Assembly: GCA_046563655.1 (NCBI GenBank)
Contig: CM102290.1
Coordinates: 930,001 to 994,000, forward strand
Origin: Yuukianura sp. NJ FZ-2021
Taxonomy: Eukaryota
DNA: 64,000 nt
Reading direction: 5' to 3'
A program made the position numbers and the translations under genes. The notes beneath the pieces were generated by a model. That model saw only the letters and a list, made by a program, of their open reading frames with translations. It did no database searches and was not told the origin of the DNA. The stretch's first letter is position 1, and each line of letters opens with the position of its first letter. Positions 7,857 through 60,080 of the stretch are shown here, one piece after another.

Positions 7857-10519
7857 TCATAATTGCAATGGTTTCCATTTAGTCTTCCCTTTGCGAGGCT
7901 TCTGCGCAGCCTTGGAAGCGGTTTCTGGAGTGAATAATGATGCTTCATTCGGTATCCGACGCTGAGACTCCGTGCCAGCGTTGGTATTTCTAGCTTGCGA
8001 CGACCACGAAGTCGAAGTTGAGAAATTTCCATCCTTATCTTCTTTGAATTGATAAAGTTGTTGCGATTCCGATGATCGCATAAAATTCTTGGCAGCATAA
8101 GATGAGAGAAGCGGCAAGGTGAAGTTGGAGGGAATTCCCGAGTATCCCGAGTTTCCTGTCGAATGTGAAGAACCAGCGACAAACACAGTTGAAGGAATCT
8201 GACATTCCTTACTGCTGTTCCCAGGATATGTTCCCTTGCCAATTGGAGTAATGAGATTATTTGACTGATTGAAAACCCAACTAAGATATTCCATTGGTGA
8301 TCTTCCTTCAGTATTCGTGTTAGTTGGTGACATTATATTTGACCTTGACGGACAGCAAGACGTATGTGTCAGAAGGTTGCTAACCGCTCGTACTTCATTC
8401 TCCGGAATTATATTAAGCAAGTCTGTATTCCTGGGAAATGGGTTCCAGCCTATTCCCATTCCGTTGGATATAAGTTCCTTTGATAAGTTAACGTAGTGTC
8501 CATCTACGCATACGTTCAGCTCAACCACGTTAGGTACAGTCTCAAATACTCCGTCATCTGGGTATGACCTAAAATTATAATAAATCTTAATTGCTTTAAG
8601 GCGTTAATAGTTCAACGCTTGAAAACGAATTCTCAGACTACATACTTCAAAGCATAAATTAAAAGCAATGCAACCAAAAACTTCCTTACGGCTTGATTAA
8701 TTGAAAGATGCAAACCTTTCCATAAACGAAATCGGAAAAAAGACTTTGCGCTCTTCGACTCCATCGATGGGAAACAGGGCTAACTCCATTCAAACTGCAA
8801 CGATATCCCTGCAAGTTTTTAGACGTTTTTCAGGGTTCACAGTTAACGCTACTAGGAAAAAAACAAACTTGAAATAAAATTTTACCAGCGGTGGATAGCG
8901 CAAAAGCTTTCGTGGAAGCAGTGAAAGTTGATTGAAGTCAGCTTCAATTGACGTTCCGAAATCGACAAGAGAGAGGGATACAGTATTGGACTCTCCAAGA
9001 ACTTCGTCGTCATGGACAACAGCTCGAAACCATTCCTTTCTACTTTTCTCGCCAATAGTAGGCAAATGTACAGCAACCACTTGATTAGTATTCACACATG
9101 CGACATTTTTAGGTAAACTTCGAATCCGATCAAATTGACGGAAGTCTTCAAACAGTCGAAGCAGGTTAGCCACTCCGGCATTTGGGACTAAACCAGAAAT
9201 ATTTTTTGTAGAAATGGCTGCTTCGTTAACATTTCATAAAGCTTACTCCTTTCGCCACATTCTTGTCCGTTTCTAAGTTCCCATCCATAGGTTTCTGCAA
9301 TATTAACAATATCACCTTACGCATTGAGTTTCGAGTTTTAATGAAAGGACCTGCCCGGCATGGTTATCTTATTTTGACGTCGTCAAACGCTCAGACTTTG
9401 ATGTGTTAATGATACCTTCCCGCTCTTCTCCAGCGTATTTAAGCTGACACAAACAGATCCAATCCGAAAATGGAACGATGCAAAAGTCCCATGGGTCAGT
9501 AATGGCCACGACAACCCCAATATTAATCAGACCCGGATCTGCACTTGTTTTGCTTTGTAGTTCGTAAGAAAGAATTATCTCTTCTTGAATCAGTGGTTCG
9601 ACGTACTTTGTACGAGCTAAAATAAAAACCAAGGGCCTCACTCAGATTCTAGTATTCAAAATTCAATACGAAATTGTCGTACAACTGTTTAAACTTAGAT
9701 GTTATTACCATGCAAGTATCTGCACCCCGCACGTCCACACGTATCAAATTTGGAATCATACTTGTAGAATTTACAAGGAGTTTGTTCCCTTGGTAGTCGA
9801 TGACTTCCTGGAATTCCTCCAGAAATGATACCGTATGGGTCACCCTGTCCTCCAAAATTGGTCAATGCATTCAACTCCTTGCTTACATCACCCATAGGAT
9901 CCCAATTGTCATACGGTGTACATTCTGCCGTCGTCGTTTGTTTTGTTCCACTTCCAGCGGCAATTCCTTCTCCAACTGAGGCCGAGGCCGAGGTTTCGGT
10001 TTCTTCCATTGTCGCGTCTTCTTCGCCTATACTAAACAAAAACAAAGCATAGAATTTTATATTTGACTCATTTATCGTTATCGATTTCAACAAACAATAT
10101 GATGACCTTTTTTGACCATCGCATTGCTTGTTGGTTTGTTACTGTACCTCTGACAGAAGATGCGGTCCAATGGTCCAATGTCACATCGGTCAATGTTCCG
10201 TGATTTTGTCTCCGCGAGCTGTAAATTCCGCGGACTTAAAAAATTACCTAAGTCAATCGTTGATAGAATATTCCGTACAATATGCCAATAAATCACAATT
10301 AAAAAACTAATTAAATTAGTTAATTAAATTACCTGATTCCAATGTTTCAATTTTTGTCTTGTTTTTTTTAAGAACTTTTCCCCGCCACCACCGGAAAACA
10401 CATGAAAGACCAAAGACTTTACTTTCCGCTCTTTCGTTGGTGTAAGGTTTAACGGTAGTCGTTGTAACCTGGTAGGCGTGGTCACCTGGTATAAAACGGT
10501 TGACCTCTTGTTGCCACAA
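7857..10519 (-). CDS. CCCH zinc finger + extended Tudor domain protein (Krimper-like); 5' end unresolved
   Basis: CKFYKYDSKFDTCGRAGCRYLH zinc finger (~9709-9775). Extended Tudor: GVVVAITDPWDF..KEWFRAVV..LSLVDFGTS..LLPRKLLRYPPL-GYRCSLNGVSP..WSRRAQSLF. Low-complexity C-terminal exon 7857-8569. Exon phases join consistently. No in-frame ATG found for the upstream exons. Confidence 0.7.
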
Positions 10520-48568: not shown

Positions 48569-49209
48569 ATGCCGAGGTAAGGTTTTTTTTTAAAAGTTAT
48601 ATCCTCATATTAAACTTAAGTGGTATCTGATTGTGATTATGGTTTTATTTTTGCAGGGACAGGATTCGCAGTCGTGAGCGTGAACGAGGAGACACACACC
48701 GAGACCGTGGAAGGAGAGATCGAAGTCGTGACCGTGAAAAGGATAGAAGCCGTAGCCGGGATAGAGATAGACTGACAAGAGATAGAAGGGCCCGAAGTCG
48801 CGATAACGATAGGAACCGAAGTCGTGACAGAGATAGAAGAGATCGCCGAAATAGGAGCCGAGATCAACTAAAAAGTCGTAGCAGGAGTCGCAGTAGAGGT
48901 AGAGGAGGTCGTGACAGAAGTCGGAGTCGAAGTCGAAGCAGGGACAGGACAAAAGATAGGAAGAATTCAGCGAAGGATGAATCTAAGGAAATTGCCGTGG
49001 TTGATCTCACGGAGGACGATCTAGTTGATAAGACAGACGATGAAATTTCGATGCTGAAAATGATGGGATTCTGTGGATTTGATACTACGAAGAACAAGAA
49101 AGTGCCTGGGAACACCGAAGGGGCTGTTCATCAAGTCGTTCAAAGAAAATACCGACAGTATATGAACCGGAAAGGCGGATTCAACCGGCCTTTAGATTAT
49201 GTTAACTAG
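48569..49209 (+). CDS. SNRNP27: U4/U6.U5 tri-snRNP 27 kDa protein
   Basis: Exon 48569-48576 plus exon 48657-49209. RS/RD-rich N-terminus, then [16 protein letters not shown]...[18 protein letters not shown]. Confidence 0.95.
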
Positions 49210-49836: not shown

Positions 49837-50853
49837 ATGTCAGCCAATTTTGCAAGATTCACTGAGCTCGGAAGAAAAATTGTAGCAGTTGGCAGAAATT
49901 ACCGGTAAAAACCTGTCATTCCTTGTTCTAATTTAATTTTAGTTGTGAACTTGATGATTATTCAGTCATTTACTAAAATTTGTATCAATTCCTCTAATAA
50001 TCGGTTTGTAATTTCAGGGATCATGCATTAGAACTAGGAAATCCAATACCAAAAGAGCCTTTGCTGTTCATGAAACCACCATCAGCTTACGTTTTGGAAG
50101 GAGGAACAATCAAAGTAACGTCTCTTTTTAATTGTTGCAAATTTGTTGAAATTGATTATATTATTCCATAAAAGTGATCAGAAGTAATTGTATTTTTATA
50201 AGATTCCAAAAGGATGTGACAGTCTTCACCATGAAGTTGAACTTGGAATTGTCATCGGAAGCAGAGGAAGCGACATCAACGAGGCTGATGCCATGAACCA
50301 TGTTGCCGGATACGCTTTGGCTTTAGACATGACGAACAGAACATTACAAGTAAGGATCGTATGCCACTTTAACTATATAAAGTATAACATTATGTTCACG
50401 TTTTAGAATACTGCCAAAAAACAGGGACTTCCCTGGGAACTTGCAAAAGGGTGAGTTGTAGCCGGTTGGTGACTTTAAAGTATTCCATGGTTTCTGTCTG
50501 AATATACAATATCACTATAACACATCTTCCTATTCTTCATTTCCAGGTTTGACACCTCTTGTCCAGTGAGTGCCTTTGTACCAAAGACGATTATACCGAA
50601 TCCGCAGAATGTGGAACTGTGGTGCAAGGTCAACGGGGAATTGAAACAACAAGGAAATACAAAAGACATGATTTTCAGTATTCCTTACCTCATCTCCTAC
50701 ATTTCTCAGCACTTTACGCTGGAACCCTACGACGTGATTTTAACCGGTACCCCAGCTGGAGTTGGTCCAGTTGTGGCAGGAGATCGTATTGAAGCTGGGC
50801 TAACCTCTCGCAACGATGTAATTAATATTAGCTTCCAAGTACAGAATAAGTAA
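49837..50853 (+). CDS. FAHD1: Fumarylacetoacetate hydrolase domain-containing protein 1 (acylpyruvase/oxaloacetate decarboxylase)
   Basis: KIVAVGRNY-DHALELGN, PLLFMKP, LHHEVELG, GYALALDMT.R, GLPWELAKGFDTSCPVS, DVILTGTPAGVG across 5 exons. Confidence 0.95.
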
Positions 50854-54556: not shown

Positions 54557-57500
54557 CTACATTGCAGGATGCTTCGTAGAATTGGCATAGACGTAATTGG
54601 AGTAGTCGAACAGATAATCACCGTATGTAATATTCAGTAGAAACAACACAATGACGCAAGAGAAGTTAAGGAAAATTCCGCTTCTGGCCATGTCTAAATT
54701 GAAAAAATAGAAAATTAATTTAAAAAAGGAAAGTTATTTTTAAGGAATAAAAAATTACCTAAAATCCTCATATTCTTGGACGCTCCAAATACAATTGCAT
54801 TGGGAGGTGTAGCCACTGAAAATTTTGAAAAAAAATGTTATGAAAATTCGTACAGATCTGTTGGAGATTAACACTGGTTGCCTTCGAGTAAATTTTAACC
54901 TGGTAACATGAAAGCATAAGAGCAAGTAACTGTTGCTGGTAACGTCAGGTACAAAGGATGAAGATTGAGATTTCTTGACTGCAAAAATTAAAATCAAAAT
55001 CATTGTTTAAAATTTCATTGCTTAAGACACTCTGAATCAAAAAAGTAGTTTTTAAGAGTGCGTTCAATTACCAGAGCCAGTAGAATGGGAATGATGATAT
55101 TTGCACATGCAGCATTCGATGCAATTTCTGTTACAAACGCTGTACAAATCATTACAATTAATAAAATTATGCGCTCGTCTAATGCTGCCAAGCCATTCAA
55201 CTGATCTCCAATCCATGGTCCAAGGCCAGATACTTCTGCGGCATCGGACAACGCAAAACCACCACCTATTCAAAACATATCATTAACGAGGATTAATAAA
55301 TATATTCATGTATAAATATATACTAAATATTAAATGTAATAATAGCAATACCCATTAGGAGAACTATTCCCCAAGGTAAATTGTCTTGGACATACTTCCA
55401 ATCCAGGAGAGCTCCAGACGAACCTACAAATCAAAGTTTTTCAATGGAAAACTTTTAGAGTTAATTTATTTAACTAGCCAATTTTACTTAATGGAACTCT
55501 AATTTGCGGTTTGTTTGTTTATATCTTTAAGTGTTAGTCTATTTTTGTTATTCCATGAGTCAACACTCCTTCCCTACCTTATGAAATTCTAATTGCACTT
55601 CAATACATAGAACCTATATTTAGGATTTACGTCGAACCCATTACATAGTATTTTGTTTTCCTTTTCAAAAGTAAATTTACACCTTACTTTGCTAATTACT
55701 TGCACAATTCTTAGAAGAATTTAGCTTAAATTATTCAAATGCGTCAGATTTTCGAAGAATTTGCTAAACTGACGTTAGATTTACAATTTTTGTTTAGGTT
55801 TACTCAAATTGCGACAGTGGAAATCAAGGTTTAATAAATGAGAAACTGGTTTTTTCTTCAACAGGTTACACAATAACTAACTTTTTAAATTTTGTTTAAA
55901 AAATGGAGAAAAAACTGGGGGGGGGGGAGGGGAGGATTAGCAGCCAGATTAAAAAAACGTACTTATTGCTCCTTATTTTAATTAACCTTGCTTATTGCCT
56001 AACCTGTTAAAGAAAAACTATTACGTCGCTGTTGGTACCTTGGTGGAGATTGCCAATTATTATAGCCAATTTCTGTGAACTCAAAGCAATTTGCTCACCT
56101 CCAGTGAAGAACGACAAGTTGCGTGGAATTATGAACAGAAAGAGAACGACCAGCATGGCTGCCGTGGAGTCTCCAATTTCAACGTACGGAACATACGCCG
56201 CCCAGCCCTTGATGAGTCCCGGATCTCTGAAGAGCCAGAGACAGACGACGAGGAAGAACAAAATAGCGACCCACGTTTCATGGAAAGTCATTGACCCCAG
56301 GTCTTTGTACTTCTGCTTCAGGATTCTGCCTACATTCCCTTCAGCTCTTTCTCTGGTGGCTCCTGACCTCTGACCTTTCCCACACCTCAGCCACTGCGGT
56401 CTACCGAAGAAGGAAATGGTCAAGTAGATCCAGGCGATGAATACGTTGATGAGCATCCCAGGAATGTTGAATGCCATCCATGTTGCAAATGTGAGATCAG
56501 TGTACTTCCCGTCTTGACCAATGTTTTCTCTATCACCCAATTCAAAATGTTATTCAAAAACCAACAGAAGTGTTTAGATAAATGAAGAACACGAGTTGAA
56601 ATGAAACAAGCGACAGACAAAGCAATAGCTTGCTAGTAAGTGTAGCTGGGATAAGAAATTGGAAATCTTGGCCAGCGCTGCGTACTTACGTTTTTAGAAG
56701 CTCAATCAGAATTAAGTTTGGAGCTGTACCGGTGATTGTGCCAGTCCTTTATTAGTTGGTTAACAAGCAACATTTGATTAGTTTTGGAGTGTGATTGGGT
56801 AATTAGTAAACTTGGTTAGTGTGTTAAGGCACTCACCCGCCAAGGTTAGAAGAATAAGCGAGTGATAGCAAATACATTTTCTCTAGAGCATTGTAAAATC
56901 CTTTCCTTTTTCTGAAAAGTTAATTTTCAAACAAGTCAGTTTCAACCCAAAAGCAAACGAAATGTGTTAGTGTTATTTGTACCATGCTAGCTTACACATA
57001 TTCATGCAAACCTTTTATGTTTAGTTGAATGGTTCATTAGTGTTTAGCAAAGTTTTAACAAGAAGCAAAGTTTTTGTTTCAACTTTTAAAAACTTTTGGA
57101 TTTTGTGAGTAACATGCAGCATTTTGAGTTTGCTTACTCATGGATTCTGGACCTAAGAACGAGGTTGGGAGCAGTTCCGGTCAGGAATCCTGTTCCGCCA
57201 ACATTGGAAGCATAAGCGATGGACAGGAGAATGACTTTGCCAAACCTTTGGTTGCAAAGTAGACAATTGAACATCAGAAGCACATTTAAATGCATTTGTT
57301 AAACCGTGATCAATGAACATGCATCGACAATAAGATTACAGGCGAAATGTTAACATTTTGGTACAGACAGGAAATGTAAAGATTTGTGACATTTTTATAA
57401 GTTCATTATAAAACAGAGTACAAAGTCATGCTACACAAAGGTGAAAACGTGCGTCAGTTAGTACTTTTGGTGTTCATGAATGAGCATTTTTGAGTTGCAT

Positions 57501-60080
57501 TTGAGAGTGCCAACTGCAGTCAAGGGCGAGCGAGCAACAACACAAAATAGTCGAAGACAAAGAAGAACAAGGTTTTTTGACTTTGATTTTCTTTAACAGG
57601 TTGGGTAGTACCTCATGTTTGTTTGATTTAAAAAGAAAGTGACTTTTCATTTCAGGGCATCGTAGTAACCATAACAATACAGCCTAATTTTTTAAATTTT
57701 GCATACGAATGTGCAGAAATTTTTTGGATTGGCACTAAAATTGGTACCAATTTTTTTTGTGTTTTGTTTTTTTGTTTTTCTGTCAACAAATGAGGTAGTA
57801 CCCAACCTGTTAAAGAAAATTAACTTTTCGTTGTCAAGGAACCTTGAAGAAGACAGACGTCCCAAGCATACCCTTTGGTCACACGGTAGAGCTCGATCGA
57901 AGTTATGGACGTATAAGGCCAAAACAGTCCACCAATATTTGCTGCACACGTAACTCCAAGGAACAACTGATTCCTAAGTGACATTTTGTCTATTGACCCT
58001 GCCAGGGTTACCGTGTCCTTCTCCTCTGCCAATGGCATTACTGATGACCCATCAGCATATCTTGAGTGGAACACCAATATGAATTTAGTACTTGAGAAAA
58101 CAAAACGGTGGAATCTGCGCAGTGACGTACTCAAAAAGGCGCGCAATTTTCAAAGTATCAGATTTTTCTGACGAAGGCGCCTTGCTCTGATTTGTCAGTA
58201 ACCCTACTCTAGTTGTCCTTGCTTGCTAAAAAATTTGTGTTTAGCGATGTCGCAATCATAACTTAGGTTAATCTTTTTTTGCACTTACTTGTCTCCATAT
58301 TCGTTCGACGCAGACGGAGACTCTGACGATCGAATGTACACTTCGTCATCTTGAAATGACCCGCCTTTTGTACTTGCGTTTGCCGATGGCAGAGAGGGGA
58401 GTCGAGATCGTCCATTCTCAATCCTCGGATTTTCAACATCCCCGTCCTAAACATACAATTTTTATGTAGTATAAAAATAAATTTTAAAAATATACAATAG
58501 AAACTATTAAATTTTATGACTAATAAACTGCTTACCCTGCACAATTCGCTTATGACAGCCAGGACAATAGGAACCTGCGAGTAAGTAGTTGTTTGAATTG
58601 TTGGGAAATCTTTGAGAAGTGAAATTTTGTAAAATGTTGAAATCTGACCATCATCGCTGTCGTAGCTGTATTGGAAATCCACATTGAAAGGAACATTGTG
58701 GTCATCATGACTCCCAGCATCAATCTAGGCGGTGAACAAAAAGTAAGGTCAAGGTCAAATGTGATAGGCGCTCGCATGGAAGCCTAACTTGTTCGAACCT
58801 GTTCATACCAATCACAGTTTTACTTATAAAACAAATTTTTGAGACAAATGCAAATTCCTCGGAAAATTTACACTGTAACCTATGTGTCTTTAAACATAAA
58901 TATTGCGATGACCTTTACCTTGCAGCTGAAGTGACAATTGTGACGGTCTAGGTCAAAGGAATTACGTATTCAACCATTACATATTAATACGATAATTGTA
59001 CCTACGGTGATTATCAATCACTCAAACTTGAAAACCTATCATTACAGAATGAAAAGAACTAAATAGTCAAAGCGGGAAGTTTAAAAGTTGGCGTTCCTGC
59101 TGAGGCCAAATTCCCAAACGTGTAAATCTAGTTGACATTGGGCGTGCATGGCCTCTAAATAGTTCAAGTGACATTTGATTTAGCCCTTAGCCAAAATGAC
59201 TGACACTAACAAGGTTAACTTTGGAAATCAGTTGTTAGTGTACTGACAGGTAGCAGAATTAAGTAGGGGTAGGCTTCTGCGCATTCTCATATATAATAAT
59301 TCACGTCTCCACTTCCTTTCGAATGTTCACACGCAACATTCAAACACTAAAGTAACACGTTAATGACTCTAAATACACTTTCACAATAATTATCAAATTC
59401 CAGGACGCAAAAAATACAATTAAAAAATATTTTTGAATAAAATCTTAATTTTAATTCGTAATTTTTTAGCAAAGTATTACCTGACCGGTGAAGTTCCAAA
59501 CCACGTCATAACACGAAGTGCAATTCTCTTGTGCAAATTGCAGTATTCAACAGACAGGGCAATAATTATACCTCCAAGGAACATCATATTGGTTTCCTTC
59601 ATATAATTGATTGATACTTTGCCTAAAATTTAAAAAAAATTTTTTTTTTAATTCTCAAAAAAGTAGTTTGTATTTTTTTTTTTTTGGATTTACCTGTATC
59701 CTGTACTCCCAAAAGTGGAAAAAGTACAATTGGAAGTAGAGCTGTAATTGCCAATGGCAGAGCTTCAATCATCCAGTACACTGCCATTAGGATTATGACA
59801 TAGGCACACTTGAATTTCTAAGTGTCAAGGTCAAATTTCAGACTTTTATTACAAAATTGCTAGCAATTTGCAAATTATAGCGCAAAGTGGGCGTGACCAT
59901 GCGCGTGTAGCATAAAACAATGGAACTTACGGTGGCTGGACGTTCTTCTGGCGTTCCAGGGAAGACGACATCCGTGTCTTCTATGAACAGTAATGGACAC
60001 AGGACAAATGGAAGTAGAATGACCACAAAGAATCTCCAGTTGATTAAAATTGGCCATCGTTCTTTCAGGGAAATTGCCAT
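54557..60080 (-). CDS. SLC13/Indy-family transporter, copy 2, with alternative TM5 exon cassettes
   Basis: [84 protein letters not shown]. Three homologous cassettes between 56690 and 58060. Confidence 0.9.
57586..57820. mobile_element. MITE-like inverted-repeat element between SLC13 alternative exons
   Basis: ~30-bp TIRs ATTTTCTTTAACAGGTTGGGTAGTACCTCAT / ATGAGGTAGTACCCAACCTGTTAAAGAAAAT. Target duplication not resolved. Confidence 0.7.

Follow-up and report, generated by a model that had tools for sequence, protein, structure and literature searches.

A 64,000-nucleotide stretch of Yuukianura sp. NJ FZ-2021 (contig CM102290.1 of assembly GCA_046563655.1, positions 930,001 to 994,000, hereafter the window) carries on its minus strand a gene of the SLC13/DASS transporter family in which three versions of transmembrane segment 5 (TM5), here called cassettes C, A and B, follow one another between the same two constitutive exons. 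The arrangement is most probably a genuine cluster of alternative exons, ancient and formed by tandem duplication, in an SLC13 (NaDC/NaCT/INDY) gene of springtail type, with one cassette spliced into each protein and with an altered loop in cassette C. The evidence comprises the anatomy of the cassettes, their homology, their conservation in other genomes, purifying selection on them and the existence of one-cassette isoforms in an annotated orthologue.

According to this explanation, splicing would join exon 58446–58289 to either C, A or the two exons of B (B1 and B2), and then to exon 56529–56099. The resulting three proteins, of about 603, 576 and 584 amino acids, would differ solely in the end of a cytoplasmic loop and in the discontinuous helix TM5a-L5ab-TM5b, whose loop, as seen in solved SLC13/DASS structures, closes the Na1 site against the first Ser-Asn-Thr (SNT) hairpin and touches the substrate. 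The A and B isoforms would have canonical sites, distinct from each other at the equivalents of residues 223–224 of the human carrier NaCT and at both ends of TM5. The C isoform would retain TM5a and the GG hinge with its loop replaced by x-[FM]-[WL]-P-[YF]-x-x-x-x-S-x-x-L-Y-[RK], and the Na1/substrate contact would be altered or absent in it, as is therefore expected from the replacement of the canonical TG-x-x-TG-[TS]-x-P-N loop.

The Gene and Its Cassettes

Judged by its domain matches and motifs, the gene is a complete SLC13/DASS gene with its nearest relatives in Collembola. With a Pfam cut-off of 27 bits (the gathering score of PF00939, Na_sulph_symp) and the window exons scored singly, exon 56529–56099 reaches 43.6 bits and exon 59622–59481 reaches 27.1 bits. 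The first SNT motif is found at 58661–58675 and the PPNA loop of TM10 at 54793–54807, while the second SNT motif, in the hairpin HPout, reads ASNAAC, i.e., S-N-A instead of S-N-T/V (ASNTAC in Folsomia). Of 421 candidates in a search with the exon downstream of the cassettes, 11 reached E ≤ 0.001; six of the best seven are SLC13 proteins of springtails (Folsomia candida, Allacma fusca, and Orchesella dallaii) and one is a JGI protein, P0004. The exon is 57% identical to the SLC13 protein of F. candida. Human NaCT, NaDC1, and NaDC3 (SLC13A5, SLC13A2, and SLC13A3), Drosophila INDY and VcINDY share the family and the fold of the window gene.

All three cassettes, B being composed of B1 and B2, lie between exon 58446–58289 and the exon that starts at 56529, enter in phase 2 and have lengths that are multiples of three (Table 1). 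The coordinates, lengths, GT-AG ends, phase 2/2 and peptides listed for them in a first-pass annotation of the window were reproduced exactly when the minus strand was reread from 58600 to 56400. That annotation also assigned the segment to the TM5a-loop-TM5b element of DASS/SLC13 carriers, and this is borne out by its alignment to residues ~203–238 of NaCT, including G219, G220, T227, G228, P229, and N230. In the A isoform of the Folsomia orthologue, which matches human NaCT at E 7.5e-127, cassette A stands opposite residues 203–238. Against positions 173–205 of the PF00939 profile, cassette A of the window scores 18.2 bits (E 0.0013), under the cut-off.

The cassettes had been described as three homologous versions of TM5. 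They are indeed tandem, frame-compatible TM5a-L5ab-TM5b segments, but the homology of C is confined to the TM5a half. In the window, a 30-residue core shows 63% identity between A and B. A profile of 6 C cassettes was aligned by hhalign with a profile of 46 canonical TM5 cassettes, drawn from springtails (A and B), crustaceans, insects, myriapods, chelicerates, a cnidarian and a frog; the match has a probability of 95.2% and an E-value of 2.9e-8, but is limited to the first 19 columns, from TM5a to the third residue after the GG, the reversed control giving 0.1%. Identities over the 30-residue core amount to 40–53% among C cassettes, 50–67% among A and 63–73% among B, as against 13–27% between C and either A or B, and by this measure the cassettes group by type, not by species. 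When 53 cassette cores were placed in a tree (38 columns), the seven rows of C type fell into a single clade on a long branch, with a support of 99 in the Shimodaira–Hasegawa-like approximate likelihood ratio test (SH-aLRT); 29 of the 50 forks stay open, and the tree gives no more than a hint of how the crustacean cassettes relate to A, B or C. On these comparisons, the similarity of the cassettes exceeds chance.

Conservation in Springtails, Metagenomes, and Crustaceans

The search for the same cassettes in orthologues was successful: the C-A-B cluster was found in Folsomia candida, Allacma fusca and two metagenomic loci, and C and A only in Orchesella cincta. In F. candida, the isoforms X1, X2, and X3 of SLC13 member 5 (XP_035708970.1, XP_021954054.1, and XP_021954055.1) and the GenBank model OXA52782.1 present the same three types, and the ab initio protein P0003 has C-, A-, and B-like segments in series, in the same order as in the window. 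Cassette A has 37 residues in both species, while C is longer in Folsomia (74 residues vs. 64). The Folsomia isoform set is known from automatic annotation. Serial arrangements also appear in the models of Allacma (A+B in P0005, C+B in P0006) and in the O. cincta protein P0028 (C+A). A scan of metagenome contigs yielded two genomic loci, L001 and L002, with the same C-A-B layout, AG/GT ends and phase 2; C, A, and B measure 186, 108, and 75+57 nucleotides (nt) in L001, and 189, 108, and 117 nt in L002, where B is not split.

The C type was followed further with a profile built from three C cassettes, which gave 13 matches at E ≤ 0.001 against 1.84 billion representatives. The motif A-N-x-G-G-x-x-[WLM]-P-[YH] is present in 10 of the 11 matches that were fetched (P0021 and P0022 were left out), although P0014, which counts among the ten, holds the very Folsomia cassette C that had gone into the query profile. 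A word-index search with the Folsomia C cassette returned Folsomia alone (2 matches among 12 candidates), the method being insensitive enough to miss the C cassette of Allacma. Overall, the C type was seen solely in springtails and environmental sequences.

A. fusca also possesses a divergent SLC13 paralogue of 695 residues (P0024), itself one of the matches of the C profile, in which a C-like segment (YVAANIGGLLLPHTSPGVNLFYDY) is the sole TM5. At the usual place of the first SNT motif this protein reads ISGPTAAFVM, and its PF00939 score is merely 54 bits. P0024 would mean that fixation of a C-type loop and disappearance of the canonical site can go hand in hand.

Isoform sets resembling that of the window exist in crustacean SLC13 genes, where identical flanks enclose a differing block that ends in TM5a-loop-TM5b, with two to four cassette types per gene. 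Ten species were compared among the matches listed, namely Daphnia pulex, D. pulicaria, Penaeus japonicus (four types), P. indicus, Palaemon carinicauda, Homarus americanus, Macrobrachium nipponense, M. rosenbergii, Scylla paramamosain, and Cherax quadricarinatus; some of their isoforms differ at the N-terminus as well. Unlike those of the window, the crustacean cassettes have ~41–145 residues, with more of the loop included, and all of them keep the canonical GGTG...G[TS]x[PT][NQ], no C-type cassette being seen among them. In a model from the ostracod Cyprideis, three cassettes are chained. The insect INDY-type proteins among the matches listed have one TM5 each, unlike the cluster in the window. 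Far from being peculiar to this gene, the cluster is old and has a wide distribution in Collembola and crustaceans; as a whole, it may date to the common ancestor of the two groups.

Substitution of tandem duplicated exons is described as frequently ancient and as over-represented in membrane ion transport (PMC9741552), and exons 5a/5b of SCN genes are cited as an example of mutually exclusive exons (PMC12772994). As in that class, homologous tandem exons in the window swap one structural segment; unlike its usual case, one copy, C, has diverged past recognisable homology over half its length. SLC13/Indy is not mentioned in the main text and one supplement of PMC9741552, and in the literature searched no description was found of SLC13 or Indy genes with alternative TM5 exons, nor of the springtail cluster. 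The cluster is an undescribed instance of a well-known tandem-exon class, its unusual element being the half-canonical, half-novel cassette C.

Purifying Selection on the Cassettes

Ratios of nonsynonymous to synonymous substitution rates (dN/dS) were calculated by the Nei–Gojobori method for pairs among the window, L001, and L002. Synonymous sites are near or past saturation among the three loci (proportion of synonymous differences, pS, 0.47–0.91), and the frames, lengths and splice sites are intact. For the whole of cassette C, dN/dS equals 0.37–0.43; for cassette A it is 0.19 between the window and L001, the other A pairs being saturated, and for cassette B 0.14–0.17, with one pair saturated. 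The core of C gives 0.11 between the window and L001, where 23 of its 30 residues are identical, and 0.49–0.55 against L002. When the window and L001 are compared by blastn, alignment is limited to the exons plus the short intron between B1 and B2. By these ratios, all three cassettes are under purifying selection. C is therefore not a dead duplicate.

What the Swap Changes

Residues of the exchanged segment contact the substrate and Na1 in solved relatives. In NaCT, the substrate-like inhibitor PF2 is described as hydrogen-bonded to Asn141, Thr142, Thr227, Gly228, Asn465, and Thr508 (PMC13370374), and Gly228 is counted among the citrate-pocket residues (PMC8537002). In VcINDY, loop L5ab and the hairpin HPin's tip are described as forming the Na1 clamshell (PMC13394699).

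At the NaCT positions concerned, the 46 canonical cassettes and the 6 C cassettes compare as follows. G219 and G220 are invariant in the canonical set and are kept in C. G222, found in 44 of the 46, is replaced in C by F, M or A. At position 224, canonical cassettes have L, I, V or F and all six C cassettes have Pro, while position 225, occupied by T in 38 of 46 and otherwise by I, L or N, is Tyr or Phe in all six. The invariant G226 corresponds to T, G, S or A in C, and residue 227, always T or S in the canonical set, to S, A or G. N230 (43/46) is Ser in every C cassette, and K234 (30/46) and G235 (23/46) give way to Tyr (5/6) followed by Arg or Lys (6/6). In other words, the canonical loop GG-TG-x-x-TG-[TS]-x-P-N is present in A and B but not in C, which retains A-N-I-G-G only and has a conserved motif of its own, ANIGGxxWPYxSxxSxxLY. 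A and B differ from each other at positions 223–224, in their tails (basic in A and hydrophobic in B) and in the N-terminal extension possessed by B.

In phmmer searches, the C cassette falls outside all four PDB alignments listed, and among these alignments its loop has no counterpart in the solved chains. The Pfam match to the A isoform is continuous, and that to the C isoform is split around the cassette. AlphaFold2 models of the A and C isoforms were built from the same 66 sequences, of which two rows are C-type. In the A isoform, the predicted helix 238–258 is followed by an eight-residue break and a second helix, 267–279, with 10-residue means of the predicted local distance difference test (pLDDT) of 89, 95, 87, and 84. 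In the C isoform, a single helix, 252–285, is predicted, confident to ~280 only, with a pLDDT of ~90 in TM5a.

The isoforms may differ in function, including the tuning of substrate or Na+ coupling that the first-pass annotation proposed. A tentative extension would be that C is a Collembola-wide module that rebuilds the Na1 clamshell, keeping TM5a and the GG and turning the loop into Trp-Pro-Tyr...Ser...Leu-Tyr-Arg. Possibly, then, the gene encodes a canonical Na+-coupled carboxylate/sulfate carrier (A and B) plus either a carrier whose coupling ion, stoichiometry or substrate is different, or a heterodimer partner of A or B that does not itself transport.

One Cassette at a Time

Mutual exclusivity of the cassettes had also been proposed. 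It is supported indirectly, in that the three RefSeq isoforms of Folsomia carry one cassette each (C in X1, B in X2, and A in X3) and are identical over residues 1–241 and over the last 322 residues; on the other hand, no enforcing feature is seen in the sequence, and among crustaceans there are RefSeq models with two cassettes and others with none. The transcript-like JGI protein P0004 carries one canonical cassette. Among the 120 best relatives of P0003, 30 are encoded on intron-free contigs of ≤6.5 kb; according to a loose pattern used to count TM5 on these transcript-like contigs, 28 have one TM5, two have none, and none has two. By analogy with the Folsomia orthologue, the gene in this organism probably makes three transporters by using one cassette at a time.

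The single-cassette models of the window gene (12 or 13 exons) have open frames of 603 (C), 576 (A) and 584 (B) amino acids, each one residue shorter if exon 1 ends at 59970. Since the frame is open both without any cassette (540 amino acids) and with all three (683 amino acids), the reading frame does not police the choice. A real constraint may come from membrane topology. In DASS carriers, TM5a-loop-TM5b crosses the membrane once, and two cassettes in series would then invert the rest of the protein. Deposited springtail and ostracod predictions that chain two or three TM5 cassettes (P0003, P0005, P0006, P0028, P0070, and others) are probably mis-annotations.

A pairing of intron sequences that might select one cassette was looked for. 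No intron conservation and no inter-intron pairing shared by the window, L001 and L002 was found by blastn or by a scan for exact complements. The window alone has a 15-nt perfect complement (57815–57829/56914–56928), a length reached in 0 of 200 shuffles; the longest complements are 10 nt in L001 (22/200 shuffles) and 11 nt in L002 (37/200). This complement was not adopted as a selector, because L001 and L002 show nothing comparable. It joins a site 43 nt downstream of C to the sequence abutting the B1 acceptor, and the pairing would loop out A.

The intron between C and A also contains a 34-nt inverted repeat (57583–57616/57790–57823), 94% complementary, with arms 173 nt apart that are the only two in the window. 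It is probably a foldback insertion or one resembling a miniature inverted-repeat transposable element (MITE). The same intron of L002 carries an unrelated 80-nt perfect palindrome (10218–10378), and that of L001 has none.

Alternative Explanations

Several points weigh against the explanation favoured here, that one cassette at a time is spliced from an ancient cluster. The case for exclusivity is built on RefSeq models computed for a relative, Folsomia. All cassette lengths being multiples of three, serial inclusion of the three leaves the 683-residue frame open, and predictions with two or three cassettes are on record (P0003, P0005, P0006, and P0028), as are two-cassette RefSeq models in crustaceans (Daphnia pulex X2, Homarus X2, and Macrobrachium rosenbergii X9) and models with none (D. 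pulex X7 and Artemia X4). No enforcing mechanism, whether a frame clash, a too-short intron or an RNA pairing common to the three loci, was found, and the inter-cassette introns of the window (226–626 nt) are long enough for splicing. Further, no canonical TM5b is matched by C in its second half, whether in phmmer, hhalign or Pfam, and its isoform is modelled with a pLDDT below 50 over residues 285–324. Just two of the 66 alignment rows are C-type, so that the alignment, and not disorder, may be the source of the low confidence. The protein made with C could transport poorly or not at all.

These points bear on three other accounts of the cluster. In the first, which is quite unlikely, C would be an additional exon, optional or constitutive, that precedes A or B in the same transcript, with only A and B alternating. 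The models P0006 (C+B), P0005 (A+B) and P0028 (C+A) do read so, the frame is kept in serial use and crustacean RefSeq models with two cassettes exist; yet the serial springtail models are ab initio predictions, prone to include any in-frame exon, whereas Folsomia isoform X1 has C without A or B. C also keeps a confident TM5a-like helix in both hhalign and AlphaFold2, and a second membrane crossing would, by the DASS topology, invert the downstream part of the protein. Biochemical equivalence of singly used cassettes, with the cluster serving tissue- or stage-specific regulation or reflecting drift after subfunctionalisation, is likewise unlikely. It would agree with the canonical residues kept by both A and B, but each type holds its own signature across genomes with saturated synonymous sites, C is radically different at the very residues that contact the substrate and Na1 in solved relatives, and the crustacean cassettes differ also at positions 228–230. 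Finally, it is very improbable that C is a decaying duplicate, never productively used and either open by chance or spliced as noise. The missing Pfam and PDB alignments and the low model confidence over its second half are what decay would leave, but C has 62–63 open codons and intact AG/GT ends in three genomes with dS > 1, a core dN/dS of 0.11, its specific motif in 10 of the 11 profile matches fetched and a place in RefSeq isoform X1.

Exon Structure and Neighbouring Genes

The exons of the gene were delimited by tblastn with the Folsomia protein P0003, the junctions being read from the sequence (Table 1).

Table 1. Features of the SLC13/DASS gene in the window (positions on the 64,000-nucleotide stretch; exons in the order of transcription).
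Feature	Position	Strand	Basis or remark
Whole SLC13/DASS gene (gene 1)	60080 (ATG) to 54557 (stop)	-	tblastn with Folsomia P0003; junctions read from the sequence
Constitutive exon 1	60080–59967	-	tblastn, splice sites read; 3′ end possibly 59970
Constitutive exon	59817–59694	-	tblastn, splice sites read
Constitutive exon	59622–59481	-	PF00939, 27.1 bits
Exon with the first SNT motif (tip of hairpin HPin), Na1-site partner of the TM5 loop	58724–58649	-	motif at 58661–58675; partner role as described in PMC13394699
Constitutive exon	58574–58536	-	tblastn, splice sites read
Upstream constitutive exon, variable cytoplasmic loop, 158 nt	58446–58289	-	ends ...GAC AA/GTAAGT, after the second base of a codon
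Cassette C, 189 nt, 63 codons: loop tail and TM5a, then a non-canonical segment	58060–57872	-	AG/GT ends; nothing in Pfam at E ≤ 0.01
Cassette A, 108 nt, 36 codons: canonical TM5a-loop-TM5b, basic tail RSRIHE	57245–57138	-	AG/GT ends
Cassette B, exon 1 (B1), 75 nt: N-terminal extension and TM5a, ends ...SSNLGG	56911–56837	-	AG/GT ends
Cassette B, exon 2 (B2), 57 nt: L5ab loop and TM5b	56746–56690	-	AG/GT ends
Downstream constitutive exon, 431 nt	56529–56099	-	first base completes the split codon of any preceding cassette
Constitutive exon	55423–55352	-	tblastn, splice sites read
Constitutive exon	55265–55072	-	tblastn, splice sites read
Constitutive exon	54978–54900	-	tblastn, splice sites read
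Constitutive exon	54815–54759	-	tblastn, splice sites read
Last exon, stop included	54693–54557	-	tblastn, splice sites read

Directly downstream, in tandem on the same (minus) strand, a second SLC13 paralogue with a single TM5 occupies ~54100–51000. Its TM5 reads ATCYSSNLGG/TGVITGSGTNL, where the slash marks an intron at the same GG/TG point as in cassette B, and the tblastn matches around its first SNT motif read FNTATTG and SKNSIS. L001 and L002 each contain the same pair, a cassette gene followed by a single-TM5 paralogue, and in the tree of cassette cores, the single-TM5 Folsomia SLC13 protein P0029 groups with the B cassettes. On the plus strand of the window, exons of a gene with a fumarylacetoacetate hydrolase domain lie at ~50000–50853 (PF01557, 100.4 bits on 50524–50853), and an Arg/Ser-rich open frame at 48637–49209 ends in an SNRNP27 domain (PF08648, 97.5 bits) and encodes a 27K-like protein of the U4/U6.U5 tri-snRNP (small nuclear ribonucleoprotein).

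Significance

SLC13 carriers (NaCT, NaDC1/3, and INDY) are studied for their roles in metabolism, lifespan and epilepsy, and the coupling of ion and substrate in them is still debated. For annotation, the finding means that serial predictions, which are frequent in these genomes, i.e., proteins of 638–724 amino acids with two or three TM5 segments, need correction. For the family, the cluster represents a natural and clean swap of exactly TM5a-L5ab-TM5b, where Na1 is formed and the substrate is touched. Springtails have retained this swap over a very long time, and comparable sets are found in crustaceans. As the isoforms are otherwise identical and one of them is devoid of the canonical loop, their comparison would test the share of this loop in ion coupling and substrate choice.

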